64,000 nucleotides of DNA from a virus (taxonomy: Duplodnaviria; Caudoviricetes), in IMG/VR virus record IMGVR_UViG_3300037295_000263, positions 96,001-160,000 of that record; one strand, written 5' to 3'. Below are positions 8,815 to 55,714 of the stretch, piece after piece. The notes under the pieces were generated by a model. That model was not told where the DNA came from, did no database searches, and was given only the letters and a program-made list of their open reading frames with translations. The stretch's first letter is position 1. Every line of letters begins with the position of its first letter. The translations under genes were made by a program, and so were the position numbers.

Positions 8815-9969
8815 TTACTTTTTGGTTTCTCTTAGTACATCGTACATTTCAAATCGTCCACCATTACGTTCGTAAATCAATCCTGCATAGACTTCCGACT
8901 TAGTTGATTCATTAAATTTTTGCGATGCCACACGTTGTGCCCATGTAAACAACGCTTTATCAATAGGATCAATTTGTTGTTGTCCGCCACTGGCTTCTAC
9001 AATAGAGATCATTTCTTTAAATGATAGTTTACGATCAACACTTTCTTTTACTGTAGACTTTTTCTTAGCAAAAGGATTTACTCCTTTTTTAGGAGCAGCA
9101 CCTTTCTTTTTATCAGCAGCAGCTTTTTTCATTGGCTCTTTCTTGTCACCGTCTTTATCTACATCTAAGAAATCAGGTTTAGCACCTTCTTTGACTTGCA
9201 TGCTTTTACAATCTTTAATCATTTCTTTTAATTTAGATTGGTCACAGTCTGGGTGCATCTTGCAAATTTCTGCTGTGGTTTTTCCATCTTTGCACATTTT
9301 AGCAATGTGCGCTTTGGACGGCATACTTTCTGTGCTATGATTCTTTCTTTCAGGCTTATCGAAGTCATATACAGAAGACTCGTCAGTTCTGTCTTCAGAG
9401 TCGCTATCTTTGTCGGAAACTTCTCTAACTTTAAGGTCGCCTAACGCCTTTAACGGATTGCCTAGCATATTGTCGAATGAAGTTTTAGCTTGTGCTTTTG
9501 TGTTAGCTTTTTTAGCAGCTTTTGCAGTTGGTTCTTTTTTATCGTCGTTTTTCTTTGCTTCTACCATTCTAGAAAACTTTAAGTCAAATGCATCGGTATT
9601 AAATGATTCTGTAGTAGCAGGTTCTTTAGCTGCAGTTTTTTTAGCGTCTCGTTTAACTTTTTTATCATCTTTATCGTCACTGCCTGGATCGTATAAACCT
9701 TTAGTTCTGTTATGACGCATACCAGTTTTAGTTTTAGTCGCCACTCCAGTCTTAGTTTGGTAAGTATCTCCTGGTTGTGCATTAGCATCAAACGCTTCTT
9801 TAGTTTCTTTTTCTTTTTTAGCCTCTGCAACATAAGATGTGCGTCCGCTCAACACTCGTAATTGAGCATCTTCAGTTAGCGTCATCGCAGAAGGTATAAC
9901 TGGAGCAGATGGAGTTTTGATTTTTCCATCGATGCTTTCAATTTTTTGAATAAGTTTTTTAAAATCCAT
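8815..9969 (-). CDS. Lys/Glu-rich putative prohead core/scaffold or internal head protein
   Basis: Low-complexity charged 384 aa; repeated hydrophobic-x-E sites (LTE, VAE, MVE, VRE, VKE, IVE); DFLDVDKDGD motif; late-type promoter upstream. Confidence 0.5.
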   Translation of the reverse strand: MDFKKLIQKIESIDGKIKTPSAPVIPSAMTLTEDAQLRVLSGRTSYVAEAKKEKETKEAFDANAQPGDTYQTKTGVATKTKTGMRHNRTKGLYDPGSDDKDDKKVKRDAKKTAAKEPATTESFNTDAFDLKFSRMVEAKKNDDKKEPTAKAAKKANTKAQAKTSFDNMLGNPLKALGDLKVREVSDKDSDSEDRTDESSVYDFDKPERKNHSTESMPSKAHIAKMCKDGKTTAEICKMHPDCDQSKLKEMIKDCKSMQVKEGAKPDFLDVDKDGDKKEPMKKAAADKKKGAAPKKGVNPFAKKKSTVKESVDRKLSFKEMISIVEASGGQQQIDPIDKALFTWAQRVASQKFNESTKSEVYAGLIYERNGGRFEMYDVLRETKK

Positions 9970-9995
9970 TTTTATTAATCCTAGAGTGTTAGATA

Positions 9996-10003
9996 TATTT
10001 ATC
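9996..10003 (-). promoter_or_regulatory. T4-type late promoter motif GATAAATA
   Basis: Overlaps the stop of the upstream gene, ~27 nt before ATG 9969. Confidence 0.55.
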
Positions 10004-10181
10004 TTTTTATGCTTCCGCCGGTCAAAAGGTTTGTTCCTTTTAAATCAAGCGCATTCTTGGCAGTACCGTTTTTATTTTTTAGGGTCTTGCCAGGTTTATT
10101 TTTATAAACAGCACCAACTGATACATTTCCTGCGGAAGTAGCACCTGCTGTTGCTGTCTCTAAAATATCTCGTATTTTCAT
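9999..10181 (-). CDS. Small putative internal virion protein (CTS-like N-terminus MKIRDILE)
   Basis: Start reassigned to 10181, 5 nt after GATAAATA; MKIRDILE|TATAG. Confidence 0.6.
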   Translation of the reverse strand: MKIRDILETATAGATSAGNVSVGAVYKNKPGKTLKNKNGTAKNALDLKGTNLLTGGSIKR

Positions 10182-10186
10182 ATTAT

Positions 10187-10194
10187 TATTTATC
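10187..10194 (-). promoter_or_regulatory. Late promoter, leaderless configuration
   Basis: GATAAATA-ATAAT-ATG. Confidence 0.65.
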
Positions 10195-10203
10195 ATAATG
10201 CTG

Positions 10204-10779
10204 CTACAAATTGCTGTTAAATTCCGGCCCTTGCAAGGTAGTGTTTGTTACTTTTTGTATAAGTTGCCATGCTAATCCTAATTTCTTCTTTTCCAATAAC
10301 TCTTTAAATATTGCTTTTTCTTCTTCGTTAGCAGACTTATAAAATTTCATAACTTCCATCATGCCAATATTTCCCTTATAACTGGCTTCGTGAGTAATAC
10401 TTTCGCCACCTCCGCCGTCGCCTCCCATAGTTCCGCTATATCCTGTATTAAACCCGTATCCTCCGTACCCCCATGCAGCACCACGAGCTTTTTTCTTTTT
10501 GCGAAATCTTTTACGTTCTTGTATGCTTTCGTCTGTATCTTTGTGCCAATAAAGAGAATTAGAATCGTAAGGCGGTGGGGCAAGATTGCGAAGCGTGCTT
10601 TTTTGTGCAGCATTGACTGCTTTGCTTCTTGCAGCAAGCGCCATTCTTTTTAAGGTTTCTGGGTCTTTTCTTTGTAATGCAGGAAAGGCACTAGTTTGAA
10701 AATGCTGTACCCACGTCGAAATGCTGTCGTTTGCAGTTGGTTTGATTCTGGATTCGACAGTAAATTCGCATGCTCTCAT
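10204..10779 (-). CDS. Putative internal virion protein (CTS-like N-terminus MRACEFTVE)
   Basis: Start at 10779 overlaps the erpA stop (ATGA); basic RKRFRKKKK patch and Gly-rich GYGGYG...GGDGGGGE segment. Confidence 0.6.
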
Positions 10780-11099
10780 ACATTGAAGCTGCTTCCGCAC
10801 CCGCATGTAGATTGTGCATTTGGATTACTAATGCTAAAAGAAGACCCCATGACATCTTCGGTATAGTCGATAACTGCTCCATACAAATACTGCATGCTCA
10901 TACAATCTACTAATAACTTAGTGTCGCCTAGGACTACTTCAAAATCGTCGTCTGATTGCTCGTCGTCGAATGTAAATCCGTATTGAAAACCACTACATCC
11001 TCCGCCTTGAACAAATGTTCGTAGTTTTAATTCAGGTTTCCCTTCTTCATGAAATAAGTCTAATATTTTAGATTTAGCTGATTCAGTAATGTTAATCAT
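10776..11099 (-). CDS. erpA: A-type Fe-S carrier, ErpA/HesB family
   Basis: [11 protein letters not shown] and C-terminal CGCGSSF motifs. Confidence 0.92.
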
Positions 11100-11107
11100 G
11101 TTTAATG

Positions 11108-11299
11108 TTATCCTGCAGCTTGGACAGATAACGACTTTTTGTGTTTATCGATTCCTTGCTTTGCTGCTTTTTTCTTGTTAGTGTGAGAACCTGCGCCGCC
11201 GCCGCCGATAGTAGCAGACGCATTTTTAGCAACGGGATTTCGTGGCTTAGCAGGTACAAGATTTTTTTTTAATTCAGTAATAAATTCGATAGCTCTCAT
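11108..11299 (-). CDS. Small basic putative internal virion protein (MRAIEFITE)
   Basis: Start 11299 lies 5 nt after GCTAAATA; N-terminus resembles T4 CTS MKTYQEFIAE. Confidence 0.65.
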
Positions 11300-11303
11300 A
11301 GTA

Positions 11304-11564
11304 CTATTTAGCATCTCCGAACCAATGTTTAAACCATTCGTCTGTTCCTGGTTTTATACTATTCTCCCTTGCTACTTGTCCTTTATTGCTGCCCTGTATG
11401 ACAGGTAGTGTTAAACTTCTATATGCAGATAGCGCAGCCTCTCCTCCTAATCCACCTAGCTGTCCGACAGCTTTTAATTGGTGGATTGGATCATCCGATG
11501 ATAATATACAATCATGGTCTTCTGACTGAGTTATATTTGCTGTTGTAATTCTAAATTGTTTCAT
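11304..11564 (-). CDS. Hypothetical protein
   Basis: Probable start MKQFRITT at 11564 (GGAA upstream); ends IKPGTDEWFKHWFG. Confidence 0.65.
   Translation of the reverse strand: MKQFRITTANITQSEDHDCILSSDDPIHQLKAVGQLGGLGGEAALSAYRSLTLPVIQGSNKGQVARENSIKPGTDEWFKHWFGDAK
11305..11312 (-). promoter_or_regulatory. Late promoter, leaderless configuration
   Basis: GCTAAATA-GTACT-ATG. Confidence 0.65.
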
Positions 11565-12150
11565 TTCCAAGACCCATTCCTTCCCTAACTCTATTATACA
11601 TCTCTCTAGAATATTTATCATTTCCAACAGTGTTGGTAAACTCGGAAAAATTGCCTTCTACTGCATGCTTTCTTGCGGTAGAAGCACTAATGCTTTCGAT
11701 ACCATCTGCATCAGGATCTCGATCTCCTGCAGATTTAAAATCTAGTTGATCAAAGTGGTAAAATCCATGGGCTTTGCCTTCTACTCCGTTATATGCAACC
11801 AACGTGTTATAAATTGATTTCCTGTCTGATCCAGCAACAAATGTTGCATTTCTATATCCAGATTCGTACAAAAATACAGCAACTTTTATTATAGTGGTTA
11901 GACTTTTATTGTTAACAACGTGACTTGCATATTTAGGATTCATTGCGCCAATAAATTTAATTTTTTCCTCATAAGTTAACGGATTCTTTTCTTTATCTTG
12001 AGTAGAACTTACAAATATCTTGTAATCGTCCCCCAGAGCGGACATGACCTCGAATAAATGAGCATGTCCTCGTGTGGGAGGATTCATTCTGCCAAAACAA
12101 AACGCAACTGTATTAGAATTAGGGTTCTCAAAGAGTTCAATTAGTTTCAT
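11551..12150 (-). CDS. HIGH-motif nucleotidyltransferase (cytidylyltransferase/NMNAT-like)
   Basis: FGRMNPPTRGH (HIGH-type), VAGSDR and ISASTARK (KMSKS-equivalent); N-terminus MKLIELFE. Confidence 0.85.
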   Translation of the reverse strand: MKLIELFENPNSNTVAFCFGRMNPPTRGHAHLFEVMSALGDDYKIFVSSTQDKEKNPLTYEEKIKFIGAMNPKYASHVVNNKSLTTIIKVAVFLYESGYRNATFVAGSDRKSIYNTLVAYNGVEGKAHGFYHFDQLDFKSAGDRDPDADGIESISASTARKHAVEGNFSEFTNTVGNDKYSREMYNRVREGMGLGNETI

Positions 12151-13046
12151 GATATAAAGTTACATATTTTTGTTTGTACATGAGTAAAGGCACTTTCGAT
12201 TTTAGACAACGACAGATTTTTTTCAATTTCTTTCATAGTTCCTATTTCTCCAGATTTTACAGTAATCATAGATTTAAATATGCCTTGTATTCTATTACCG
12301 CTTCGGGGGTTTGTCAACACCTGTTCTGAAGTTGTTAACAGTTCGTCAAATGATAAACTTAAATTATATTGATATAATAGTTTTCGTAAATCTTCAAAAT
12401 TCTTAGATGTCCATAAAATTTCTTTATTCAATTGATTAAATGTTCCAGGAACGTAACTAACTCTACGTAGCTGTAGTTCAACACTAGACAGATTAAATTC
12501 ATATTCTTGATCGAGTGGTAATTCACTATCTACTTCGATGCCCAACTTTGCAAATAGAATTGAAGGAGCAGTTTCGATAGCTGCAACTTTGACTAGTCCT
12601 AGTATTATACCTTGCTTAGCAGCAGGCAAATCCAAAAATTGTTTCTTAAATAGTGCTTCTGTAGAATCTAACGCAATGATATTGTCGATTTGCACACTAT
12701 ACCCTAACTGTTTGTCATAATAACGAACCGTAACTAGTTCTCCAGTGTTGTATGTCTTTTTACCTGAATGTTTAACAGAAGTAAACGGAACAATAACAGA
12801 ATCAGGCATCTGATTAAAGAATACCACTAATTCTTTTTTAACTGTAGGTTTATCATGAGCCGACTCGACATGTACAATGATATCGATATCACCAAAGCTT
12901 GTTTTGTTAAAATCGGAGTTGTAACTTCCTGAAACGTGCAACGAAACGAACCCTGGAAATTTTGAAATAATGTTGTCGTATGATAACAAAAATTTATCGA
13001 AGTCGGCTCTACTTTTTACCCGATCAGCACCAGTAGACCCGCTCAT
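12147..13046 (-). CDS. Pol-beta superfamily (minimal PolX-like) nucleotidyltransferase
   Basis: SGSY...FGDIDIIV plus third Asp in VQIDN. Confidence 0.7.
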   Translation of the reverse strand: MSGSTGADRVKSRADFDKFLLSYDNIISKFPGFVSLHVSGSYNSDFNKTSFGDIDIIVHVESAHDKPTVKKELVVFFNQMPDSVIVPFTSVKHSGKKTYNTGELVTVRYYDKQLGYSVQIDNIIALDSTEALFKKQFLDLPAAKQGIILGLVKVAAIETAPSILFAKLGIEVDSELPLDQEYEFNLSSVELQLRRVSYVPGTFNQLNKEILWTSKNFEDLRKLLYQYNLSLSFDELLTTSEQVLTNPRSGNRIQGIFKSMITVKSGEIGTMKEIEKNLSLSKIESAFTHVQTKICNFIS

Positions 13047-14032
13047 TATAATTGTGCTAACAAGTTTGATGTAGCAGGAAGAAATTTTCCTGACAAACTC
13101 AATTTATCTTTCCTTAAAATCCATTCCTCTTGCAAATTATTAGGAATATCTGCTCGTGTAGAATCAAGTATTTTAAAATATACATTCAAAAGCTGAGAAT
13201 AGTCTGCAGGTTTCATTTTTTCTTTAAGCAGTGCATGCAACTTAAAATAGTCTTCTGCATCTTCTTGTAATATATCAAACCCTAATCGTGCGCTTAGCAT
13301 TGCAAGTGCTTGACCTGGATCGTGTGCGACAACAAGATCAGTATCTTTATCTTTTACCCCAGTAACATGATTAAATGATAAATTAGCTACTTGGAATGCC
13401 GATAACATTAATTGTGTGCGATGCAGGCCCTTAACATTCGAAGTTAACAAACGCGGAGCAGAGTAATAAGAAAATTTAAGCCATGGCAGATCACCCACCA
13501 TCCAATCTATCTGAACATTTATATCTAGCTTTTTTCCAGAAGCATTACTTTGTGGGTAAAGCCCAAACATGTTTCCAGTGGAAACTTTTTTCTCGTCAGC
13601 TTTCAATACAGGTGCTTTGATGTTAATTTGTTTTGCTAATACTTTTAAAAATGCTTTCATTCTTAATTGAGAAGGTGTGGAAGTACGGGCTCGCTTAGTT
13701 AGTAATTGGAATTCAGCTAACACTTCAGCCGGGTCTACTCCCCATTCTGCAATAGCATTGTCTGACATATCTTTGTCTAAAATAACCGATACATCCACTG
13801 CTAAATCAATATCTCCTGATTCGTCTACTTTACCAACAGAACCTACAGGATTAAAGTATTGTTCATTAAAGATTTTAGACTTATTTGGAAAAATTGCAGC
13901 TAACTCTTTAAAATACTCATTTAATGTTGGGCTAATATTTTCTTTCTTAATGCCACTAGTTTGCCCTTTGAAAACGTTTCCGCCTTCAACTACTAATACT
14001 GGTTGTATGTCTGTGTGTTGATCAATCTTCAT
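13046..14032 (-). CDS. Pol-beta superfamily (minimal PolX-like) nucleotidyltransferase
   Basis: VGSVGK...SGDIDLAV plus third Asp in VQIDWM; N-terminal VVE|GGNVFK. Confidence 0.7.
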   Translation of the reverse strand: MKIDQHTDIQPVLVVEGGNVFKGQTSGIKKENISPTLNEYFKELAAIFPNKSKIFNEQYFNPVGSVGKVDESGDIDLAVDVSVILDKDMSDNAIAEWGVDPAEVLAEFQLLTKRARTSTPSQLRMKAFLKVLAKQINIKAPVLKADEKKVSTGNMFGLYPQSNASGKKLDINVQIDWMVGDLPWLKFSYYSAPRLLTSNVKGLHRTQLMLSAFQVANLSFNHVTGVKDKDTDLVVAHDPGQALAMLSARLGFDILQEDAEDYFKLHALLKEKMKPADYSQLLNVYFKILDSTRADIPNNLQEEWILRKDKLSLSGKFLPATSNLLAQL

Positions 14033-14363
14033 TGTAATCGCCTTTTGTGATAAATTGTTCTTGTTCCTCGGATATTTTTTTTGCTAACTTTTGTATTTCA
14101 TACTTGTCGAACTTTTCTTTTGAATTTTCTACTTCGTATTTTTCTAAATAATGTTTGAGACATTGCTTTACTGGCTGTACATATAATTTCCATACGTCAG
14201 GATTTCCAACATACTTTTTATGTTTTTCAACAGTAGGAAAGATGTAATTTCCTAGCATTTTGTTATCGTTATCGATAAAGAATTTTAAGTCAGCTGCCCA
14301 ATCGACATCTTGATCATTTTCTTTAGGACCACCAACAGGACTAAACATTTCTTTTAATAACAT
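14022..14363 (-). CDS. Hypothetical protein (N-terminus MLLKEMFS)
   Basis: 113-aa ORF; first gene of the NTase operon; GGTGAT SD-like sequence. Confidence 0.7.
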   Translation of the reverse strand: MLLKEMFSPVGGPKENDQDVDWAADLKFFIDNDNKMLGNYIFPTVEKHKKYVGNPDVWKLYVQPVKQCLKHYLEKYEVENSKEKFDKYEIQKLAKKISEEQEQFITKGDYNED

Positions 14364-14421
14364 ATTATCACCAGTTTTTGTACTAACATCATACCGACGT
14401 ATTCGGCTTATGATTTCTCAA

Positions 14422-14429
14422 TATTTATC
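14422..14429 (-). promoter_or_regulatory. Late promoter motif GATAAATA for the NTase operon
   Basis: Intergenic, upstream of 14363; the leader contains a hairpin at 14388-14414. Confidence 0.55.
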
Positions 14430-14431
14430 AG

Positions 14432-14788
14432 TTAAACACTATATCGAATTACATCAATTGTACCGTCCTGGATGCAAAATGCAGCTCGGATCCATACAAA
14501 GTTTCCTGTAAAGTTACGACTAGTATACACGGTTAACGGAACATTGTCAATTGATTCCACAGGAAGCCCGTTATCGTATTCTATATCAAACCAGTCTTTT
14601 TCACCAGGGTGTAGAATTAATGTACCTTGTAGCTTAACCTGACCTTTAAAATCATTAATTTGAAATATTGCAGTGTGTAGCGGAAATTCTTTACGATAGT
14701 ATCCAGCACCTTTCTGTTCTTTAGAATAAAGAAAGTTTTCAGAAATCGTACTGGCAGAATTTAATAAGATGATATTTTCAGTGGCCAT
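14432..14788 (-). CDS. Hypothetical (probably virion-associated) protein
   Basis: 118 aa, beta-rich; GATAAATA-ATGTT-ATG start. Confidence 0.7.
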   Translation of the reverse strand: MATENIILLNSASTISENFLYSKEQKGAGYYRKEFPLHTAIFQINDFKGQVKLQGTLILHPGEKDWFDIEYDNGLPVESIDNVPLTVYTSRNFTGNFVWIRAAFCIQDGTIDVIRYSV

Positions 14789-14793
14789 AACAT

Positions 14794-14801
14794 TATTTAT
14801 C
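14794..14801 (-). promoter_or_regulatory. Late promoter, leaderless configuration
   Basis: GATAAATA-ATGTT-ATG. Confidence 0.65.
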
Positions 14802-14872: not shown

Positions 14873-17185
14873 TTACACTTGGTATATTTGCTCTTCGACC
14901 TTATTTAAAACTTTCTTTTTTCGAGGTGCTCTAGCAATTTTCATGCTTTTTTCTCTAAAAGTAAATTTAGGGCGATCTTCTTCGATAGTAACATCCACAT
15001 ACCCGCCATTTACCAATGCCCCGAATAATACTTCACGGCTCAGTGGAGATTTGATTTCGTTGTCGATTACCCGACCTAGCGGTCTAGCCCCCATCTTGCT
15101 ATCATAGCCTTTTTCGGATAACCACTTGTTTGTTGCATCATCGATGATAATTTCAATATTCTTATCATATAATTGTTCGTTAAGTTCTTTAATAAATTTC
15201 TCAACAATCTTATGCACAATTTTTGTATCAAGTTTAGCAAATTTAATGATACCATCTAATCGATTGCGGAACTCCGGAGGGAAGAATTTTTTAATAGCTT
15301 TATCGTCCTCGCCGTCTTTTGATAAATCGCCAAATCCGATAGTGTTATTTTCGTTATCGCGGGCACCTAAATTTGAAGTCATAATAAGAATGCAATTACG
15401 ACCATCAGCTTGTTTTCCATTCGATCCTGTGACAAATCCGTTATCCATAAACTGCAAAAGAATATTGCTAACATCCGAGTGGCTTTTTTCAATTTCGTCT
15501 AATAACAGCACACAGTTAGGATGTTCTTGTAGCTTAGTAATTAGCTGTCCAGCGTTGTCTTCATATCCTACATAGCCCGGAGGAGAGCCAATTAATCTAG
15601 AAACGGAATGCTTTTCTTGATATTCGCTCATGTCAAACCTTATCAATTCCATGCCCATTTTTTGGGCTAAGGCTTTAGCAGTCTCTGTTTTGCCTGTACC
15701 AGTAGGTCCAGAAAACAAGAAACTTCCTATGGGCCTATTGGGGTTTTTCATGCCTGCCTGCGATACAAAAATTTTGTCTAATAAAGTCTCAACTGCAGTA
15801 TTTTGCCCGTAAACTATCGATTTTAGATTATTTTCTAAATTAGCAAGGTTGTTGCTTTCTTTTTGAGCAACATTTTCCAATGGAATGTTAATCATCTTGC
15901 TTAATTCATAAACAATTTGTTCAACATCTACAATCTGCGTAATTCCTTCTTCGGCAGGATCATCTTTAAGTTTATATCGAGCAGCAGCACAGTCGAGTAT
16001 ATCGATGGCTTTATCTGGAAGTTTTTTGTCTGCCATGTATTTTACACTTAACTTTACTGCCTGTTCGATAGCACCGTCTGTGATTTTTACATTATGGTGT
16101 TGTTCGTAATATCTTTTAATACCTTTAAGTATTTTAACTGTAATTTCGGGAGTAGGTTCGTCGATAGTAACCCGCTGAAACCGGCGCATTAGTGCTCTAT
16201 CTTTTTCAAAATGCTTTCGGTATTCTTCCCAAGTTGTGCTAGCAATCAGTTTAATCAGACCTTTAGTTAACATGGGTTTAATCATATTACTCATATCATT
16301 AGATCCTTGGTTAGACGATCCTGCACCTTGCATCATGTGCGCTTCATCAATAAACAGGATAACTTTTCCTTTTTTCTCTAAAGCAGCCATAACCGACTTA
16401 ACTCTTTCTTCAAAGTCTCCTCGATATTTTGACCCTGCTAACATAGCACTAATGTCTAATGTATAAACTTCGTGATCAAGAATAAACTTAGGAACTTTTT
16501 TCTCAAATATTTTTCGAGCAATACCTTCCGCAATGGCTGTTTTACCTACGCCAGGGTCACCGACCATAAGAACATTACTTTTGTTACGTCGAGCCAATAC
16601 TAATTGTATTTTTTCAATTTCTTCATCTCGTCCAATTACCGGGTCAATTTTACGTTGCTTTGCTAACGCAGAAAGGTTTGTACAATAAGTGTTGATGACT
16701 TGATCGATTTGAGATTTATTTGGCTGGCTTGTACTATCGTTTGCTGCCTCGGGAAGATTTTCTTGACAATGCTTAATTAATTTTTCCTTAGTAAGACCGG
16801 CCTTAGACATAAAATAAAAACTAAAGCTATTCTTTTCGCTAAGAATGCTTAGTAACAAATCGGAAATGTTTATGTTTTCTCGGTTATTAAATAATACTTG
16901 CGTAAAACAACGGTTTAACACACGCTCAACCGAATTAGTTTTTTTAGGCTTCACCTCTTCATGATCAACTTTAATATCGTTAAGATTTGAAATAATGTAT
17001 TGATCAATATTTGCTTTAATAAATTTCGAATCTGCTCCTGCTTTCTTAATTAATTCGAACGAATCCTCATCCTGCATTATAGAATGTACTAAATGTTCGA
17101 TAGTTATGTATTCGTGTTTATGTAGAGTCGCTAACTCTACAGATTTATCAAAAATCTCTTGCAATTTTTTACTAGGTTCAATCAT
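14873..17185 (-). CDS. clpA: ATP-dependent Clp protease ATPase subunit ClpA
   Basis: Clp N-domain (HEYITIEHL); two AAA+ modules GDPGVGKT/FIDEAH and GPTGTGKT/LLDEIEK; GSPPGYVG; no ClpB middle domain. Confidence 0.93.
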   Translation of the reverse strand: MIEPSKKLQEIFDKSVELATLHKHEYITIEHLVHSIMQDEDSFELIKKAGADSKFIKANIDQYIISNLNDIKVDHEEVKPKKTNSVERVLNRCFTQVLFNNRENINISDLLLSILSEKNSFSFYFMSKAGLTKEKLIKHCQENLPEAANDSTSQPNKSQIDQVINTYCTNLSALAKQRKIDPVIGRDEEIEKIQLVLARRNKSNVLMVGDPGVGKTAIAEGIARKIFEKKVPKFILDHEVYTLDISAMLAGSKYRGDFEERVKSVMAALEKKGKVILFIDEAHMMQGAGSSNQGSNDMSNMIKPMLTKGLIKLIASTTWEEYRKHFEKDRALMRRFQRVTIDEPTPEITVKILKGIKRYYEQHHNVKITDGAIEQAVKLSVKYMADKKLPDKAIDILDCAAARYKLKDDPAEEGITQIVDVEQIVYELSKMINIPLENVAQKESNNLANLENNLKSIVYGQNTAVETLLDKIFVSQAGMKNPNRPIGSFLFSGPTGTGKTETAKALAQKMGMELIRFDMSEYQEKHSVSRLIGSPPGYVGYEDNAGQLITKLQEHPNCVLLLDEIEKSHSDVSNILLQFMDNGFVTGSNGKQADGRNCILIMTSNLGARDNENNTIGFGDLSKDGEDDKAIKKFFPPEFRNRLDGIIKFAKLDTKIVHKIVEKFIKELNEQLYDKNIEIIIDDATNKWLSEKGYDSKMGARPLGRVIDNEIKSPLSREVLFGALVNGGYVDVTIEEDRPKFTFREKSMKIARAPRKKKVLNKVEEQIYQV

Positions 17186-17679
17186 TTTAGGTTCTTCCTT
17201 AGTTTCTTCATAGCTAATTGTAATTTCAAAGGCGATACGTTGTCAACGAAGCAAACACCATTCAAGTGATCCAGCTCATGTTGAAAACATCTAGCAACGT
17301 ATCCGTCCATAGTCACTGTGTGCGTGTTGGCGTTGCTATCTTGGTATTCTGCAGTTATTTTTGAAGGTCGTTTAACGTTCAAATACAGTCCTGGATAACT
17401 AAGACATCCTTCTCGAAACAAGCTAGTTTCGGTACTTTCTTCGAGAATAACGGGATTGAATACACCAAATGGCATTGGAAATCCGTCGATGTTAAAACTG
17501 CCCATTACAAAAACACGATCGGTTAGCCCAATTTGATTAGCAGCCAGACCAATGCCGTTATTCGATATCATCAAGTTTATCATATCTTGTTCGAGTTGTT
17601 TTGCATTGTTATTTACAGAAAAATCCCAAGCTGTACTGGACATAACTAGACTTTCATGTTCTCCTAAATTATACTCCAT
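17182..17679 (-). CDS. def: Peptide deformylase
   Basis: GIGLAANQIG, EGCLS and QHELDHLNG motifs. Confidence 0.96.
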   Translation of the reverse strand: MEYNLGEHESLVMSSTAWDFSVNNNAKQLEQDMINLMISNNGIGLAANQIGLTDRVFVMGSFNIDGFPMPFGVFNPVILEESTETSLFREGCLSYPGLYLNVKRPSKITAEYQDSNANTHTVTMDGYVARCFQHELDHLNGVCFVDNVSPLKLQLAMKKLRKNLK

Positions 17680-18496
17680 CTTTAATTTCCTTTATTTTTT
17701 GTAATTGTTCAACAGATAAATTTGTCGGAATACTAGTTGATATTTTAATTAGCAAATTTCCTTTATCAGAAGATCGTAAAATTGGCATTCCTTCTGCTCG
17801 GCAGCTTAATATTGTTCCATGCTGTGTTCCTGATGGAATTGAAATTTGAAATTGTTTTTTAGACAACGTTTCGATAGTTAGTGTACTTCCTAATATAGCG
17901 TCCCATACTGAAATAGATTGTTCGTATATTAAATGATTACCTTCTCTGTGAAAGATTGCGTGGGGTAGCACATTAACGTTTACAATTAAATCTCCTGCAG
18001 GAATGCCAGGAATACTGTCATCACCCAAGCCGTGGTATTTTATCTGTTGCCGATGTAACACACCGGGCGGAATATTAATTTTAATAGTTTTATTTGAGTT
18101 ATCCGGAAGAGTTATGTCAGCACCAATCTCTTTTCCTACTAATACATCCTCGAGTGTAACATTTACTACAAAATTAAAAGATTTGTTTACCTGTTGACGT
18201 TGATGATGAAAGTTAAATCCAAAATGACTAAAGATATCATTAAAATTTCCAGAATCAAAATGGAAATCTTGTGAATTAGTAGGATTTTTAGATGAAGCTG
18301 GGTCGTGCCCAGCATCTATCATACTCTTTTTTTCTGGATCACTTAAAAATTCATAAGCTTGGTTTATTTTTTTAAAGTGTTCTTCATCACCTCCGCGATC
18401 CGGATGGTGCTTCATTGCTAATTTACGATAAGCTTTTTTAATTTCTTCAGAAGAAGATGGAGAAGTTAATTCTAGTAGGCTATAGTAATCTTTCAT
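17669..18496 (-). CDS. dnaJ: DnaJ/CbpA-type co-chaperone (no Zn finger)
   Basis: J-domain with HPD (KHHPDRGGD) and a DnaJ C-terminal domain. Confidence 0.92.
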   Translation of the reverse strand: MKDYYSLLELTSPSSSEEIKKAYRKLAMKHHPDRGGDEEHFKKINQAYEFLSDPEKKSMIDAGHDPASSKNPTNSQDFHFDSGNFNDIFSHFGFNFHHQRQQVNKSFNFVVNVTLEDVLVGKEIGADITLPDNSNKTIKINIPPGVLHRQQIKYHGLGDDSIPGIPAGDLIVNVNVLPHAIFHREGNHLIYEQSISVWDAILGSTLTIETLSKKQFQISIPSGTQHGTILSCRAEGMPILRSSDKGNLLIKISTSIPTNLSVEQLQKIKEIKDGV

Positions 18497-20047: not shown

Positions 20048-20782
20048 TTATAACCTTTTTAATAGTAATGAATTATCGCCATTCTTAAAAAGAAAATGGT
20101 CTTGATACTTGTCTATCTGATAATCTCCTAATACTTTGGTAAGCCAGAAAATCTCACCCATTGCATTAGTATCCAATGATGCTGCTCCTTCTATCACAGC
20201 TTGCGGATTATCTTCAGAAATTATCTCTAACTGAACTGTTTTTCCAAAGGGTTTATGTATTGTAATTATGTTGTTACTAATGGATAAATCATCCATTAAT
20301 GTTTTGTTAAAAAACTGTTTAATACCTTCTGTTTTAATTTTTAAAAGTAAACCATCGTATAGCTGAGGAGTCGAAGGAACTACTTCTCCGAGTACATCCA
20401 TGGAGGCTTCGTGTATTTGCGAATTCTTATGATATTTGAATTTCCAATCATTTATATTGGTTAATTTGTACACCCCATAAGTTAAGTCTTTAATTTGTTC
20501 AGATAATTGATCAGTTCTTTTTATTTCAACGAATATAGAATATTCTCCATTTTCGTTTTCTCCAGAGCTGATATCAGCATCTAATACAAAGTTATATCCT
20601 TTCTCAATAAACTCCATAAGATCTCTTGCAGGCGCCCGATCCTTAGCAGTAAAGCTTATCACACATACGTCTCGATCTTCGCCCATTTTTGATTTATAAG
20701 AATCAACTTCGAAGGTGGGGTATATCATTTCTTGTAAATCGTTAGTACGTAGTCCTTCAAATATCTGTTGGTAATTCTTCAT
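20048..20782 (-). CDS. Hypothetical phage protein (N-terminus MKNYQQIFE)
   Basis: Start reassigned to 20782; no catalytic motif recognised. Confidence 0.7.
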   Translation of the reverse strand: MKNYQQIFEGLRTNDLQEMIYPTFEVDSYKSKMGEDRDVCVISFTAKDRAPARDLMEFIEKGYNFVLDADISSGENENGEYSIFVEIKRTDQLSEQIKDLTYGVYKLTNINDWKFKYHKNSQIHEASMDVLGEVVPSTPQLYDGLLLKIKTEGIKQFFNKTLMDDLSISNNIITIHKPFGKTVQLEIISEDNPQAVIEGAASLDTNAMGEIFWLTKVLGDYQIDKYQDHFLFKNGDNSLLLKRL

Positions 20783-21293
20783 CTGTAATATCCTGTATTT
20801 TTTGTTCTGTGCTGTCTTTACTGGAGGCTTGTATAGTTTGTTGGTTAACAATGTCAGCTACTTTATTTTGGTCAAGATTTCGGTAACCTCTATTAATATC
20901 GTTCATAAGCTTCTTAGGAATAGTTATGCGAACACTCCAAATAGGGGAATAATCGATTTTACCTTTACGAGTTCCTGCTCGAATATCCTCTGGTTTTTTA
21001 ATTTTTCTAACACTTGCTATTTTACTTTCGGCAAATTCTACCTTGCATCCGTAATCAATTAGCCGTGTGCCGGCTGTTGGATCAGGCATTTTGTCGTATG
21101 GCCACATAAATGTACATTCGACAAAGTATCTTTTTTCGTACGGACCACTGACTAATTCCCCATCTATCCAGTTATCGTAAACATACATGTCTAGTTCATC
21201 TAACACTCTTTCAAAATCTTTGAGTAAATTTAAACTATTGTTAGATCCGTATATTTGCTCAATGTTTTGAATAATATCTTTAATATCGGCCAT
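20757..21293 (-). CDS. Hypothetical phage protein
   Basis: 178 aa; SD GAGGAG; late motif GATAAATA at 21310-21317. Confidence 0.75.
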   Translation of the reverse strand: MADIKDIIQNIEQIYGSNNSLNLLKDFERVLDELDMYVYDNWIDGELVSGPYEKRYFVECTFMWPYDKMPDPTAGTRLIDYGCKVEFAESKIASVRKIKKPEDIRAGTRKGKIDYSPIWSVRITIPKKLMNDINRGYRNLDQNKVADIVNQQTIQASSKDSTEQKIQDITDEELPTDI

Positions 21294-25786: not shown

Positions 25787-28545
25787 GGTAATTTTTCTCC
25801 ACGTTGCGGAAACGCAAGGTATTTATCTTCGATAGTTCCGTCTATTATGTCAATAATATATCTGTCAGCAGTAAAATTAATAGTTTTAAAATCAAATCCT
25901 GACAATTTAATTCTTGAAATAACAGATTCTGCAAATCCTACTTTAGTATAACATAATACTAATGCTTTGACGTACCCCGATTCTACCGGACTATTTGGTT
26001 GTATACTGCGCATCCATGCAGGTAAAAATTCTCTGTCTCTGATTCCAGCTTCTTTAATTCTTGATCTCATATTTTTAAAACTGTTAGGAAAGATTCGTTG
26101 GTGATCGCTATCGCTTACAAATGGAATATCACTATCGACTTTTATCGAATCGTAGCTGGTTAATACTTTGCTGTTTATATTATCGGGTAAGTTAACAGTC
26201 TTACTAATGCTTTTTCCATTTTTTTCGTACTCGTCAACTATCTCTACATATACTACTTCATATAATACTTCCTGAGTAACAAGGTCTCTGCCTATCGCCG
26301 ACGACACATTACCGAATTTAAGTTGTTTTTGGTAATGATTTTTTGCCATTGCTTGAATGTATTTTTCAGCTTTGATACTTTCTATACCAGCATAAACCAG
26401 TACTCGTAAAGTAGTTTGTACTCCAAAGTTAGGATCGCCGACTCTGTAAATTTCCGAAGGGTTAAAAATATTAACATCGGTAATAAAACTAGTCCACTGT
26501 AGTCTTTTAGATTTTTCTTGGAATGCTTTTATATACAAATTTGCAAATGTCGTGGAATCAGTTGCATTAATAGAAATAACAAAATCTTTAATGCTTTCTG
26601 CAAAATTTGCTGTATCTTTAGCTTTAATTTTAAAATTAAAATCTCTGTCAAACGTAGTATTATCGAGACTAAAAGTAGTGTTGAACTCTCGTACACCATC
26701 AACAACCTCGAAGAACCTAGTTAATCCTTTGCCGGATGCATCAGCAAATTGTTTAACTTTTCCTTGTATGCTTCCCGAAGCAGATACTGATAGTCCAGGA
26801 GGAAGAACGCCGTCTGATAATTCATAAACTATTTTAGAATTTCCAGCAAGTCCTATTGCCTTGACTTCTAGTGTGCTAGGCTGATTAGTTTTAATTGTTC
26901 CTAAATGTCGAGAGCTTACCCAAGTAATGCTATTTTCAATTTCTCCAACAATACTTACAGTAAATGTTTTCTCAGAACTAGAAACACCAATTTCCCAAAA
27001 TTCTAAATTAGTTGGGTAAATATTTTTGTTAGTCCGACGACAGATATAGATAAATCCTTGAAATCTAACTGTTTGATTTTCTGTATAAAAAATACCAGGA
27101 TTCCAATCTCCGACAAAATCGTAATTTTGAGCAGACAACTCTGCTGGAAAATTAACAGCCTGCATAGTGAATTTATATCCTATAGCAGTTGGTCGTTGAT
27201 ACGGTACTCGGCCTGCAATTTCTCCAGTGGATCTATCTAACTCCATGCCCGGGGGAAGTTCACTAATACTTTCAGGAACAATAGTTTCCCATAATGTACG
27301 ATTAGTAATTTGAAAAGTCTGATCGATAGTTGATAAATTATTTTTTGTCCAATAGAATCCTTCTTGAGGTTCGATATTTTCGATATTTTCGATATTGTTT
27401 TTTGATAAACGTACCCAAGTCTGATTAATTACTGCAGGATCCGTATCACTTTGAAAAATAACTGCATCGCCTGCATTGTATGTCAGAAAAGGGCTCCATG
27501 GTCCTTTTAAAGAATATTTAAAATAAGGAATTATATTGCTTAATTCAAAATTACCGTCGACTGTTTGTCCTGTTTCTATAATTTTATATTTTCCAGGATT
27601 TTTTTCAATTAAAAAATAAGTAATAGAACCAGGCAGCGAGGGCGGATTATAAACATCAAGATATATAGTTACGTAGTTGTTAGCACGATACCGACCTAGA
27701 TCAGATTCAGTAATCCATATAGGAGCCCGGTTTGAATTGTTATCAGCTCTAAATAGGTTGGTATCTACTTGAACAATAGTGTTGTCCGATTTTAGAAATT
27801 CTTCGGTGACTACCCACATCTTAAATACTTGCCTAACTTCGTGTAGTCCGTCGGACGCCGCAATTACAAAGCTGTAGGACCTGCTAATTCTTTTTGGAGT
27901 AATAGACTCGTCGGAGTAATCAAAAGTAAATGTATCGTATAAAAATGTATCAAAACCATTCGAAGTAGATCGATATACATCCAACGGGGAAATATCATAC
28001 CCAACAGTGTCGAACGCTCCTGTTTGATTGTCATAATCTACTGCAAATATTGGATCAGTAAATCCGGAAATTACGCCGTCGCGACTAAGAGCCAGCCCAG
28101 GCGGGAGTTGTCCACCTGATAATACTTGATAAAATTCTAACTTGTCTCCGGCTATTATATCTCTGTCGTCTGCAACTAGTTTATAATTAACATACGCATT
28201 ATCGAGTACAAAGTAATTGTTGCCTTGACCTACGTTAAGATATCCTTCTTTAGTAACCCATTCTGGTACATCAGAACCATTGACTACTAGATTAAATGTT
28301 ATATCTTTTATTGAGTCTCCATCCGATGCCCTAACAACAAATCGGCTAACAGTGGACCGTTGCACTTCACCGGGGCTGCCTTTAATAACTCCGTTATCTA
28401 ATCGTAATCCAGTTGGTAGTTTCCCTGCTATTATACGATAGGACACAGGACCTATTGATGAAATTGCTACAATAGGAATTTGAATAATTGCTCTTTCTTC
28501 TAACGTTCCTAGATTACCAGCGGGTGTGCTCCATGCTATTGCCAT
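25783..28545 (-). CDS. Putative baseplate wedge protein with Ig-like repeats
   Basis: Repeated GxLPxGLxL...GxIxG Ig-like (He_PIG-type) modules; 920 aa. Confidence 0.65.
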   Translation of the reverse strand: MAIAWSTPAGNLGTLEERAIIQIPIVAISSIGPVSYRIIAGKLPTGLRLDNGVIKGSPGEVQRSTVSRFVVRASDGDSIKDITFNLVVNGSDVPEWVTKEGYLNVGQGNNYFVLDNAYVNYKLVADDRDIIAGDKLEFYQVLSGGQLPPGLALSRDGVISGFTDPIFAVDYDNQTGAFDTVGYDISPLDVYRSTSNGFDTFLYDTFTFDYSDESITPKRISRSYSFVIAASDGLHEVRQVFKMWVVTEEFLKSDNTIVQVDTNLFRADNNSNRAPIWITESDLGRYRANNYVTIYLDVYNPPSLPGSITYFLIEKNPGKYKIIETGQTVDGNFELSNIIPYFKYSLKGPWSPFLTYNAGDAVIFQSDTDPAVINQTWVRLSKNNIENIENIEPQEGFYWTKNNLSTIDQTFQITNRTLWETIVPESISELPPGMELDRSTGEIAGRVPYQRPTAIGYKFTMQAVNFPAELSAQNYDFVGDWNPGIFYTENQTVRFQGFIYICRRTNKNIYPTNLEFWEIGVSSSEKTFTVSIVGEIENSITWVSSRHLGTIKTNQPSTLEVKAIGLAGNSKIVYELSDGVLPPGLSVSASGSIQGKVKQFADASGKGLTRFFEVVDGVREFNTTFSLDNTTFDRDFNFKIKAKDTANFAESIKDFVISINATDSTTFANLYIKAFQEKSKRLQWTSFITDVNIFNPSEIYRVGDPNFGVQTTLRVLVYAGIESIKAEKYIQAMAKNHYQKQLKFGNVSSAIGRDLVTQEVLYEVVYVEIVDEYEKNGKSISKTVNLPDNINSKVLTSYDSIKVDSDIPFVSDSDHQRIFPNSFKNMRSRIKEAGIRDREFLPAWMRSIQPNSPVESGYVKALVLCYTKVGFAESVISRIKLSGFDFKTINFTADRYIIDIIDGTIEDKYLAFPQRGEKLP

Positions 28546-28554
28546 TGAGAGTCC

Positions 28555-29076
28555 TTAAATCCCGCCAAGATCGAGACTTAAATCGGCAGGGTTGAGTATT
28601 GTTCCAAAATCTATCGGATTAACTGCTACCAGTAATTCTAATATGTTGGAGTAAGAATCGCCTATTTGTCCAAAGTCAAATGAAGTTAGCACTTGACTGA
28701 TAGATGACTTAGTGTCGATAGTAATATTGGCACCGTTTGAAACAACACTGATATTTTCTCCGCCTTTAACCGAGATGCTAGGATGATTTGAAGATTGTAC
28801 AACAGTGTTGTCTGTTTCTAGAGTAGTAAATGCATTAACAGTTATAGAAGTACTGGACGAAGTGATTCCAGCTCCTCTTAAAGTTTTAAATTGTAATTCA
28901 GCACCGACTTTCTGAGCAAAAATTCCTATTTCAGAATTATTTAAATTTCTTGCAGTGGTTATTAAATTGTTTCCTAGTTCTGTAAAGTTGTCATTTACTT
29001 TAACAAACGCTTCACGCAGGTTATCGCCTAAGCCGTCATTTACTGCATTGCCGATATTAATTTTCTGTATTGTCAT
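28555..29076 (-). CDS. Baseplate protein with T4 gp9/gp10-like N-terminus
   Basis: INIGNAVNDGLGDNLREAFVKVNDNF. Confidence 0.65.
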   Translation of the reverse strand: MTIQKINIGNAVNDGLGDNLREAFVKVNDNFTELGNNLITTARNLNNSEIGIFAQKVGAELQFKTLRGAGITSSSTSITVNAFTTLETDNTVVQSSNHPSISVKGGENISVVSNGANITIDTKSSISQVLTSFDFGQIGDSYSNILELLVAVNPIDFGTILNPADLSLDLGGI

Positions 29077-29094
29077 TGAATGCTCTCTATAGTA

Positions 29095-29102
29095 TATTTA
29101 CC
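29095..29102 (-). promoter_or_regulatory. Late promoter motif GGTAAATA
   Basis: Intergenic, upstream of 29076. Confidence 0.5.
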
Positions 29103-29112
29103 GCTAGTATTT

Positions 29113-32100
29113 TTAAGTCCTACCCACCGCAACTTCAATAGTGCCAATGTGATCTGACTGATAATTTTCCAACGCTTTGCCAATGATTGTTCCTGCTTTT
29201 GCGTTGCCTTTTGCCGAGATTGCAACTCCTGCAATGTTACTAGTAATCATTAAGTCGCCTTTTGACACAGTACCGACTACCTTGCAAGGTACTCGACCTT
29301 GTAGTGCTATCAAAGATTTAATACCAGGACACTCTGTATTCATAATGTACGCAGCATTATTGCTTACTACTCCAGCAACTTTATAATCTTCTGTAGTTTT
29401 AGACATAGTTACTTCGAACTCGCCACCGAATATAAGTACAGTTCCAGCTGGGTATGCTTTGTCACTTTGATAATATTCAGCTAAGTCGGCGTATGTAGCC
29501 TGTAACCTACTTCCAAACGACAAAGCCCATTCGCCGGTTATGACTCCAGCAGTGCTTGCTGCACCAGTTGATAATGTCTTAGATATTAACGTGCCTGTAG
29601 ATACATTGATAGATCCGGTTCCTACTGTAAGGTTACTTGTAGTTTCCATTGACCAGTTACCAGTCAATGTTCCTGCAGTAGCAACCGCTCCGGTAGTGAT
29701 ATTCGAAGCTATCAAAGTTCCAACTGACACGGAACCGTCTTGGGTTCCTAATCTATTTTTAAATAGATGTGAATCGTTGTAATAAAAAGATTTACGATCA
29801 GCTACAGTGTCACCGTCACCGATCAAGATACCTGCTTGATTTAAAAATCCATATACTTGAGTATATCCTCCCGAAGGTGTGGCAGATTTATTAACTGTTG
29901 GTGAACTGCCGATAATTAACTCCGATGCAGTTATTATTCTTGCAGAAAAATCTCCATTGATATTTCTTCTAACTAGTGTATTTGGATCTTCAGCTGATGA
30001 ATCATTAACTATGCTGTAGTCGCTATCGTTAATCGACGATGACGTTGACACACGTTTTAAATAACCAACTCCATTACTGTACTGGGACTTTTTAATTCCC
30101 AGCCCTTGATTTATTACTGTTGCAAATGTGACAGCAGTGACATTGGCAGTTTCGATAGTAGAATTTCCTAACACAGTACCTTGCGGAATTGTTTGCAATT
30201 TACTTAAGGTTAAGCCATTATCTTTAACGCTGATCCAACCTGAAGTTGAATTAAATTGTGCAGAATCTACAGATGCAAGTCCAAGGTCGGCTTGCGCAAT
30301 ATCAGTAGCATTTGCTCTAGTAGACGTGCTGTTCATGGACAACTTACTTTGTAATATAGCAGCAGAATTATTAATATTGCTGTTAACTATTGCACCATCG
30401 TTAATTTGAACATCGATAGTATTCGGTGAAGCACTCAAATTAAAAGAAACATCGCCTATGACTGATACGTTAACTGCAGACTTACCAGTGCCAGTAAATG
30501 CTAACAAGTCTGCAGAATCTGGAGTAGTTATTGTTGTATTTTGAAAATTGTCAAAAGTTAAACTTTGAAGATTTACAGCATCCTTAGGCTGTGACGGATT
30601 CGCCAACTCGATAATTTTCTTATCGCCCAAGTTCATATTGCTTTTCATCGCCAGTAAACCGTTAAGCGGCATATATCCGCCATCGTTTAATGGAATTAAA
30701 TCAGTTCCGTCCACTATTGCACCGTTGTGTGTAATACCCAATCGGCGCTCTATATATGTTCGAGTTGCCAGTTCTGTAGGCACGCTATCGACAGCATTAT
30801 CTGAAAACCCAGTGTCAATTGAAAATTCCGAAACCGGAACACCCCGTTTAAACCCAATACCGTCGAGCTTGCTTAGAGTTACAGTAGAACTAAGAGTAAC
30901 TTTGCCTGTTCCTTGGTCTACTCTGAAATACGGACCTACACTAAAATTTCCAAATTGATCAGTGGTTGCATAAAAAACACGTCCTACTGATCGTTCTTTG
31001 ACTTCATTTGCTGCGTTAAATGTATTTACAGGTGATCCGTATATCTCATTAGGAAAGTTGGTGTCTGCATAACTACCAGTTCCTATTTCCAACAAATCGT
31101 GGCTTGTAACTCTTGTTAAAGAAATCCGAATAGTTAAGGTTCCGGCTTGATTTTTCGAAAGCGCACTTTTTAAAGTAGGCGGAGTAGTGTAATTAATAAC
31201 GCTATCTTCCAGCGGCCTATTTAATGTTATTAGTCCGTAAGGCTTGCCAGTTTGTGCAGTAGATTGGTAACCGATAACAGAGTATTCTTCTCCAATCCAT
31301 ACTAGTTTAGAACCAACGAGTATAGACAAACTGTCACTACTAGATATTGTACTAACTGCATAAGTACTATCGCCGACTATTCCCAGAAGTCGTTCTGTGT
31401 AATGGATTCCTGATTGCGTTCCTGATGTTTCAATTGCCCCTCCAGTTGGAGTATCGGATAATACAAATGTATCGGGATCTACAACATTTTGCACCCAGAA
31501 CTGTCGAGATTCGATAATTCCAGTAGGCAATACGCCTTCGGTTTCAAATCGAATTACATCACCTGCTGAAAATCCGTGAGATGCTAATGTTACTACTCCT
31601 GGATTACCGATACTAATAGTACATGCTTTTCTAGTAGCTCGAAAAGGTTGCAGAGGGAATGTTGTAATTTCTACATAGTTGTAATTTTCTCGCAAGATTG
31701 CTACAGCTAGCCCTTCTACGGTGTACTTGTGTATACCGCTTTGAGTTCCCGATGTTTGAATCGGAGTTCCTTGTTTTTCTGCTGAAATCCTAAAACTGTT
31801 TTGGCTGAAACCTGCAGTTAACACGTAATATACTGTGTCTGCTACTATTCCGGCAGGAAGTACTCCAGAAGTTGAAAATTTTATTTGATAGTTAGGCAAC
31901 AGCTCATGCGCTGTATTTGATATAATTGCCGGATTACCGATACTAATAGTAGCTGTTTTAGCACCAGTCGAATCAGTATATGAGTCAAATTGTAAAATTC
32001 GATATACTTCTTCAGTATCTTCAAATACTAATCCAGTACTAGGTCGCGTGGCAACATTTACTACATTGCCTGTAAGCACGATAGATTCTAGCTGCCGAAT

Positions 32101-38118: not shown

Positions 38119-38123
38119 AATTA

Positions 38124-38131
38124 TATTTATC
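38124..38131 (-). promoter_or_regulatory. Late promoter, leaderless configuration
   Basis: GATAAATA-TAATT-ATG. Confidence 0.65.
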
Positions 38132-55106: not shown

Positions 55107-55110
55107 CATT

Positions 55111-55713: not shown

Positions 55714-55714
55714 T

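Follow-up and report, generated by a model that had tools for sequence, protein, structure and literature searches.

A short N-terminal peptide is shared by the products of four neighbouring genes in a 64,000-nucleotide stretch of viral DNA (bases 96001-160000 of the 216.7-kb viral contig IMGVR_UViG_3300037295_000263 of IMG/VR), and it probably serves this phage lineage as an address tag like the capsid targeting sequence (CTS) of phage T4, with optional trimming by a prohead protease of the gp21 type. The whole stretch is called the window below, and positions refer to it unless they are given as genome positions. In T4 the CTS, MKTYQEFIAE, targets proteins and is cut after its Glu, and the internal proteins share the CTS alone (PMC8442874, PMC3012670, PMC9026906). 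The four genes of the window, at 9999-12150, begin with the motif M-[KR]-x-x-[ED]-[FIL]-x(1-2)-E, which was proposed in an initial annotation of this DNA:

11551 to 12150, minus strand: HxGH nucleotidyltransferase, 199 aa (PF01467, phrog_3041), tag MKLIELFE at 12127-12150
11108 to 11299, minus strand: p63, tag MRAIEFITE at 11273-11299 (profile score 10.7)
10204 to 10779, minus strand: p191, a low-complexity, basic protein, tag MRACEFTVE at 10753-10779 (profile score 4.8)
9999 to 10181, minus strand: p60, tag MKIRDILE at 10158-10181, with a basic tail ending in KR

Rarity of the tag among gene starts

The six N-termini that the initial annotation had quoted as CTS-like are all present on the minus strand, at 10181, 10779, 11299, 12150, 14363 and 20782. 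Three of these starts had been corrected there, and the corrections stand. Among relatives of the gene starting at 10181, 39 distinct sequences begin MKI[RK][ED]I[LF]E, and the in-frame residues upstream are unconserved, often with a stop within 1-2 codons. At 10779 the ATG shares the sequence ATGA with the stop of the IscA-like gene before it, and the ATG at 11299 lies 4 nt past the stop of the preceding open reading frame (ORF).

The whole-genome motif search that had been proposed as a check was run on 253 genes from a home-made gene caller with 622 candidate starts; starts were re-judged from relatives (for the nucleotidyltransferase the caller gave 12045). The strict motif was found at 7 of the 622 candidate starts and at none of 1039 internal Met positions. 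A tag profile trained solely on the tags of related contigs gave the four cluster genes scores of 10.7, 10.7, 10.3 and 4.8. Outside the cluster it found two genes, that of an 81-aa protein in the head module (5.1) and that of a ParB_N-like protein (4.9), and the next start genome-wide scored 1.3. At internal Met positions a single score reached 5.0 and the rest were below 0. Profile-positive genes account for 4 of 11 in the cluster region and for 2 of 242 elsewhere (Fisher p = 3e-5), so that the tag is commoner here than among other gene starts. In a 282-kb relative, a regular expression for the tag, run over six frames, matched just 6 ORF starts, each of them on the coding strand and no more than 12 codons past an upstream stop. 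The ParB_N-like protein is a candidate for a further packaged enzyme, judging from its tag:

Genome 210193 to 210555, outside the window: ParB_N-like protein, 120 aa, tag MRAYEFVVE, with a GATAAATA box 5 nt upstream

The consensus reads M-[KR]-[AI]-x-[ED]-[FIL]-[ILVF]-(x)-E, with M-[KR]-[AI]-x-[ED]-[FI]-[IV] as its best-kept part. The bodies that follow are unrelated to one another: an HxGH enzyme, a ParB_N-like domain, a G/Y-rich basic protein and two distinct small basic peptides. The tags end in ILE (p60), ITE (p63), LFE (nucleotidyltransferase), FFE (81-aa head gene) and VVE (ParB_N-like protein), and comparable ends are found in the scaffold (LFE) and the capsid protein (LAE) of the same phage.

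The phage and its head module

CheckV puts the completeness of the contig at ~59%. For its family-B DNA polymerase the identity is 51% with Sinorhizobium phage Phosso, 46% with Atu_ph07 and 43% with the RaK2 group; the contig also encodes a major capsid protein of the T4 Gp23 family (PF07068) and a prohead protease of the T4 gp21 type (PF03420, Peptidase_S77, 86 bits). Taken together, the polymerase identities, the Gp23 and the protease indicate that the phage is an uncultured jumbo member of the T4 superfamily. The head module of this freshwater phage comprises:

Genome 30875 to 32587: portal
Genome 30616 to 30861: 81-aa protein, N-terminus MLLLEFFE, adjoining the portal gene, in gp67 position
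Genome 29669 to 30514: 281-aa acidic protein
Genome 29027 to 29656: prohead protease
Genome 27920 to 29011: 363-aa scaffold (phrog_10922), N-terminus MLDFVKQLFE
Genome 26729 to 27901: major capsid protein

By BLASTP against T4 gp21 the catalytic residues of the protease are kept, with EVDHP facing ELNHP of T4 and GVSSRG in both; the His is His77. The catalytic residues of T4 gp21 are H85 and S140 (PMC12991175). Homologues of the protease are abundant in metagenomes (at least 8000 matches; the best 120 are 88-92% identical), and a megablast search of the region against 50,697 phage records returned no match. The scaffold start, MLDFVKQLFE, resembles the tag by eye and is unmatched by motif or profile. 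The head and core proteins of T4 that were compared start in a like manner: gp22 with MLKEQLIAE, Alt with MELITELFDE and gp24 with MAKINELLRE.

A copy of the predicted capsid cut site in p60

The p60 protein reads MKIRDILE and then TATAGATSAGNV, and E8 is invariant in 24 sequences. Right behind this Glu stands ATAGATSAGNV (10125-10157), identical in 11 of 11 residues to the segment of the major capsid protein just past its predicted L-A-E cut. The capsid protein reads ..RKYLAE and then SATAGATSAGNVATLNRV.., which is kept in three relatives, and the context shared by the two proteins is E/[ST]ATAGATSAGNV, the slash standing behind the Glu. Over ATAGATSAGNV, p60 and the capsid gene have 25 of 33 nt in common and every difference is synonymous; the peptide in p60 is therefore held by selection. 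Aligned to T4 gp23, the capsid segment falls on the conserved N-terminal arm, immediately past the junction FLTE/AEIGG, which we take to be the cut position within the gp23 sequence. The propeptide of T4 gp23 comprises 65 residues (PMC5694885). With its tag joined to the post-cleavage context of the capsid protein, p60 gives what appears to be the strongest internal sign that the Glu of the tag is a protease site. A complex prediction for the protease (18-row alignment) with p60 (24-row alignment), made without controls, gave a score of 0.00 and weighs neither for nor against such a site. As to the rest of the protein, members of the p60 family always end in [IV][KR]R and keep DGTAKNALD, while the middle varies by a P/G/K-rich insertion of 25 residues.

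Conservation of the gene block and of the tag

The four tagged genes belong to a block at 8815-14801 on the minus strand, and its other members that recur in relatives are:

14432 to 14788, minus strand: p118, untagged, first gene of an apparent late unit (weak match to phrog_14467, 'virion structural protein', 1e-7; homologues in 64 loci)
14022 to 14363, minus strand: p113, acidic, N-terminus MLLKEMFS (homologues in 75 loci; directly upstream of the nucleotidyltransferase gene in relatives)
11304 to 11564, minus strand: p86 (~86 aa), untagged, beginning MKQY[RK][VI]T in relatives (homologues in 66 loci)
10776 to 11099, minus strand: IscA/HesB-type Fe-S carrier, untagged (PF01521, 1e-16; in 63 loci)
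8815 to 9969, minus strand: p384, K/D/E-rich, N-terminus MDFK[SK]LIxKIxS (homologues in 70 loci)

A scan of IMG/VR with the nucleotidyltransferase gave 162 relatives, from which 80 loci were kept. The order p118, p113, nucleotidyltransferase, p86, p63, IscA-like, p191 family, p60, p384 is syntenic, and each gene of the block occurs in 59-75 of the 80 loci, except for the p191 body, which is variable. The relatives in p191 position begin MRAxEF[IV]xE, followed by a K/R run and then a G/Y-rich stretch. Tagged ORF starts in the related loci number 221, and every one of them is on the gene strand. The bodies behind them include the enzyme, the p60 family, proteins rich in K/R plus G/Y, the KQRLDPKCWKGKHKEGT family, the NFADGKKPGRKGLAKRSG family and others.

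Without their tags, p60, p63 and p191 have isoelectric points (pI) of 10.5, 11.0 and 9.8, and p384, likewise calculated, has one of 9.3; the genome median is 5.9, and 5% of the predicted proteome exceeds pI 10. No usable Pfam, PHROG or NCBIfam family was found for p60, p63, p191, p384, p113 or two Pol-beta-like proteins of the block, the first four giving just weak PHROG matches of unknown function. The same three collections revealed no homology of p60, p63, p191 or p384 to T4 internal proteins.

The tagged nucleotidyltransferase

The enzyme matches PF01467 with 25.9 bits against a cut-off of 21 and carries the motif FGRMNPPTRGH. In 31 sequences that are 50-57% identical, M1 and E8 of its tag are invariant and L3, L6 and F7 are kept in at least 90%, which makes the tag as conserved as the catalytic motif. 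An AlphaFold2 model has a pLDDT of 87 overall and of 52 at residues 1-10, with strand 1 starting from residue 13. The nearest folds of the model are PPAT and NMNAT (target-normalised TM ~0.6-0.7), and canonical members of the fold begin 2-3 residues before the first strand, as seen in the alignment to PPAT 3k9w. Since the tag is conserved, yet lies before the first strand in a part of low confidence, it behaves as a linear motif and not as part of the fold. The enzyme corresponds to the 'cytidylyltransferase' conserved in T4-like cyanophages and in the Methylophilales phage Melnitz. The nucleotidyltransferase ORF of most relatives is longer, with 300-520 aa, and has a C-terminal extension that is missing from the 199-aa protein here.

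N-termini that fall outside the tag

The membership that the initial annotation had given to the tag held for the four cluster genes and failed for its two other candidates. MLLKEMFS (14363) scored 1.1 with the profile, and residue 8 is Ser in all but one (Gly) of the 40 commonest distinct N-termini among those listed; it was rejected as a cleavable tag because of this conserved Ser, and may possibly be a targeting variant that is left uncut. MKNYQQIFE (20782) opens the following gene:

20048 to 20782, minus strand: p244, 244 aa (phrog_13138, 4e-25)

The start itself is well supported, with AGGA 8 nt upstream. As a true tag MKNYQQIFE was rejected: close relatives begin M(H/S)NQ..QQLNE, and the cultured jumbo phages have other short N-termini. 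What is kept is [IL]-x-E at 0-2 residues before a conserved GLR (around residue 10), found in all homologues examined as IFE, LNE, LRE, IVE or IYE, and this suggests a short propeptide removed by the protease. By tblastn, the homologues of p244 are annotated as virion structural proteins in Atu_ph07, GAP32 and RaK2 and as hypothetical in Phosso; p244 may be a separately processed head protein. Its gene and that of p178 form a pair (20048-21293) that is adjacent in Phosso, Atu_ph07, GAP32 and RaK2, both members being annotated as virion structural in the latter three.

Late-promoter-like boxes

Short boxes of the sequence GATAAATA stand upstream of several genes of the block:

14794 to 14801, minus strand: GATAAATA box, 5 nt before the p118 start
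11612 to 11619, minus strand: GATAAATA box within the nucleotidyltransferase gene, at its 3' end and ahead of the genes that follow
10187 to 10194, minus strand: GATAAATA box, 5 nt before the ATG at 10181 (p60)
9996 to 10003, minus strand: GATAAATA box, 26 nt before p384

The window holds 9 such sites; none is on the non-coding strand, and a gene start follows closely behind each of them. Four precede p118, p113, p60 and p384, another is located within the last part of the enzyme gene, and others stand before p178 and a 2187-aa protein. Genome-wide, 25 of 44 ATAAATA sites lie no more than 80 nt upstream of a called gene, the first head-module gene included. In distinct upstream regions of the relatives a NATAAATA box was found before p118 in 30 of 30 at 4-5 nt, before p60 in 38 of 41 at 4-7 nt and before p384 in 34 of 36 at 25-35 nt. 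The T4 late promoter box is TATAAATA, and because of the resemblance the NATAAATA boxes may be read as late promoters.

A NATAAATA box lies 4-7 nt before an ATG at 10182-10194 (p60), 14789-14801 (p118) and 38119-38131 (gene 37195-38118) of the window and at genome positions 30862-30876 (81-aa head gene) and 210556-210568 (ParB_N-like gene). At these five genes no Shine-Dalgarno sequence was found. If transcription starts a few bases past the box, as at T4 late promoters, the mRNAs would be leaderless or nearly so.

Such starts raise the question of whether the likeness of the N-termini has any role in sorting at all, or was inherited with a duplicated gene start or reflects initiation without a Shine-Dalgarno sequence. 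The tagged genes are indeed without a recognisable Shine-Dalgarno sequence, the p60 mRNA is probably near-leaderless, and MRAYEFVVE and other tags are close enough to be copies. Against this, genes that bear no tag, p118 for instance, start without this peptide although their promoter spacing is the same, and the tag of the enzyme is kept across sequences that are just 50-57% identical. Since the amino-acid variation within the tag is conservative (K/R, E/D, I/L/F) while the codons vary freely, we regard such an origin as very improbable.

Comparison with T4 and other phages

The tag resembles the CTS of T4, which is found on IPI-III and in the Alt and gp24 propeptides and is removed by gp21 (Mullaney and Black 1996; PMC8442874, PMC9026906, PMC5694885), in being an N-terminal tag of ~8-10 residues from Met1, in having hydrophobic residues spaced as on one helix face, and in ending with [IL]-x-Glu. 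Both phages have a Peptidase_S77 protease whose catalytic His and Ser agree, scaffold or core proteins with similar starts, and a cargo, predicted in this lineage, that combines small, very basic proteins with an enzyme; the T4 internal proteins are highly basic (PMC8442874). The two differ in that the tag of this lineage is 1-2 residues shorter and no tagged protein is homologous to a T4 internal protein. Some family members here are without the Glu, and one cargo protein, p60, copies the post-cleavage N-terminus of the capsid protein. The block is conserved and syntenic in ~80 relatives, whereas the T4 internal-protein loci are hypervariable (PMC3012670).

The N-terminal propeptides of head and ejection proteins in the giant phages SPN3US and phiKZ are likewise cut after Glu by a prohead protease and thought to target the head (PMC5694885, PMC10052503). 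Unlike the tag of 8-9 residues found here in a phage with a plainly T4-like head module, they are mostly 80-130 residues long with the motif A/S-x-E, and a gp22-type scaffold is unconfirmed in these phages.

T4-type tags also occur around the nucleotidyltransferase gene in other phages: in Melnitz, C48C1 and Syn9, genes around the enzyme start with, for example, MKKFSEIIE, MKKFSAFLSE or MLTFKQLSE. The virion proteome of cyanophage S-CREM2 comprises 52 proteins in CsCl-purified virions, among them the cytidylyltransferase gp154, and according to its authors cyanophage virions often contain such enzymes (PMC10665884). This gp154 is a homologue of the nucleotidyltransferase of the window and starts MKNFSSFLTE. 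Over all ORF starts of S-CREM2 a T4-type regular expression matched four, those of gp6 (SAM hydrolase), gp13, gp14 (kinase) and gp154, and a DNA pattern search found the same four sites and none in a reversed control. All four proteins start MK-x-[FL]-x-x-F-L-x-E and are virion-detected, for which the chance with random genes out of ~219 is ~0.003, with the expression written after those N-termini had been seen; because it is post hoc, the sole informative point is that no virion-undetected protein carries the tag. In contrast to the present phage, S-CREM2 has a 10-residue T4-type tag and belongs to another family (Kyanoviridae) with another host. The phrase 'capsid targeting sequence' is absent from the S-CREM2 paper (PMC10665884). 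The virion-detected 'Cas9-like' gp12 of S-CREM2 (7704-10313, minus strand) has a look-alike of the tag, ..RFASFMAE, at residues 18-25; the start may have been annotated too far upstream, or the protein may carry the tag internally.

Packaging as such leaves two purposes to be weighed, since the tagged proteins might enter the prohead solely as parts of its assembly, core- or scaffold-like or DNA-condensing, comparable to the internal peptides, gp67, gp68 and gp22 of T4; they would then do nothing in the next host and form no payload of effectors. The p60, p63, p191 and p384 proteins are of low complexity, basic or K/D/E-rich, and have no enzyme fold, and the small basic, low-complexity products might just as well condense DNA or belong to the core. 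The scaffold has a like N-terminus, the gene in gp67 position is tagged, the copy of a capsid segment in p60 suggests a structural role, and the strong conservation and synteny of the block are unlike the hypervariability of the T4 loci. Two of the tagged proteins are enzymes, however (the HxGH nucleotidyltransferase and the ParB_N-like protein), and a tagged SAM hydrolase, kinase and cytidylyltransferase are present in mature S-CREM2 virions. A role in assembly only is thus unlikely in our judgement.

The comparison of the tag with the T4 CTS that the initial annotation had made is supported in its core by the protease, the tag ends, the tag on a head-core gene and its like on the scaffold, the copy in p60, the boxes, the basic products and the mass spectrometry of S-CREM2 virions. 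It is less apt for p63, in whose relatives the Glu is usually missing. Besides the post hoc form of the S-CREM2 search, several observations weigh against it. Most relatives of p63 begin M[RK]AK[ED]F[IV] without the final Glu and go on with PxSKPRNFVAKN. Ser replaces the Glu in p113, residue 11 of p384 varies and is not a conserved Glu, and the tag of p191 has Thr at P3 (T-V-E), off the I/L-x-E preference. Homologues of p60 and p384 were not found in cultured phages (tblastn, 50,697 phage records). The reading of the boxes as late promoters depends on their likeness to the T4 TATAAATA box, and the S-CREM2 authors warn that abundant proteins may co-purify with virions (PMC10665884). As the Glu is missing or replaced in p63 relatives, p113 and p384, cutting is not universal, and these proteins may be targeted and left uncut, or may stand outside the set. 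In the T4 CTS, residues 4 and 7 matter for targeting and residues 8 and 10 for cutting, and Asp at position 10 blocks cutting and not targeting (PMC9026906). The best-kept part of the tag fits these genetics.

Neighbouring genes

Between p113 and the HxGH enzyme the window has two genes for which tblastn found nothing equivalent in this place in any of the 80 related loci:

12147 to 14032, minus strand: two untagged genes of Pol-beta-like nucleotidyltransferase fold (328 and 299 aa; GDIDL and GDIDI)

Their Atlas neighbours are NTP_transf_2 and Pol-beta palm clusters, and in an Atlas cluster (531 aa) near the 328-aa protein 30% of the members carry CTP_transf_like. The HxGH and Pol-beta-like nucleotidyltransferases may be fused in some phages.

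Radical-SAM genes above the Pfam threshold number ~9 in the genome (12 at E <= 0.001), unusually many for a phage; six are packed at 49401-61308 of the window, and the others lie at genome 166-170 kb and 187 kb. The IscA-type carrier (10776-11099) may serve these enzymes. Genes for ClpA, a peptide deformylase (PDF) and DnaJ are found at 14873-18496, just upstream of the block.

In principle the tag could be read by another machine encoded in these parts, either a radical-SAM maturase, as the number of such genes (six of them in the window at 49-61 kb) and the IscA-type carrier conserved in the block might suggest, or the phage ClpA, DnaJ or deformylase encoded nearby. The link to a radical-SAM maturase was rejected for want of neighbourhood linkage, a CxxxCxxC ORF being found within ~6 kb of the block in just 4 of 80 related loci. 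Other points also speak against a different reader: the tag ends in a protease motif, like N-termini stand on head-core proteins, p60 copies the capsid cut site, and tagged S-CREM2 proteins are virion-associated. We therefore consider a reader outside the head improbable, and return to the address tag for the prohead as the preferred reading.

Proposed mechanism and meaning

If the tag works as the CTS does, the tagged proteins would be made late in infection from late promoters of the NATAAATA type, and the short amphipathic tag would dock them onto the scaffolding core of the prohead. The gp21-type protease would then cut after the Glu of [ILVF]-x-E, past the tags, MKLIELFE included, and past ..YLAE in the capsid protein, and the trimmed products would remain in the head with the DNA. 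The predicted cargo consists of the HxGH nucleotidyltransferase, a basic protein of low complexity and two very basic peptides that cutting would shorten to 52 and 54 residues. From the evidence above we infer, with good support, that the tagged proteins are packaged in the capsid. Their docking and cutting, their staying in the head and their delivery to the host would follow by analogy. Ejection into the host together with an anti-defence role, as the initial annotation had it, is for the present conjecture.

The CTS principle is textbook knowledge for T4, and reviews have already suggested that T4-like phages load varied proteins by CTS-like tags (PMC9026906). In the literature that uses the term 'capsid targeting sequence', aquatic T4-like phages and this jumbo lineage are absent from the 18 titles listed (of 21 papers). 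What is fresh here is the capsid-mimicking p60 and the explanation for virion-borne enzymes of cyanophages. Put together, and only tentatively, the tag might be a lineage-wide address label that lists the packaged and probably injected proteins of very abundant, uncultured freshwater T4-like phages and of marine Kyanoviridae. On this broader proposal p60 would mimic the N-terminal arm of the capsid protein and compete for, or share, its docking and cleavage site, and the packaged nucleotidyltransferase would act on the nucleotide or cofactor pool of the host as the DNA enters.

Should the tag work as in T4, the packaged proteins of a large, abundant and uncultured group of aquatic phages would be predictable from sequence alone. 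A T4-type tag would also be a simple explanation, which we did not find in the literature, for the repeated detection of cyanophage cytidylyltransferase, kinase and SAM hydrolase in virions. The tagged proteins would be natural first candidates for factors that act before phage gene expression, and the tag itself might be put to use for loading foreign proteins into phages of this kind.

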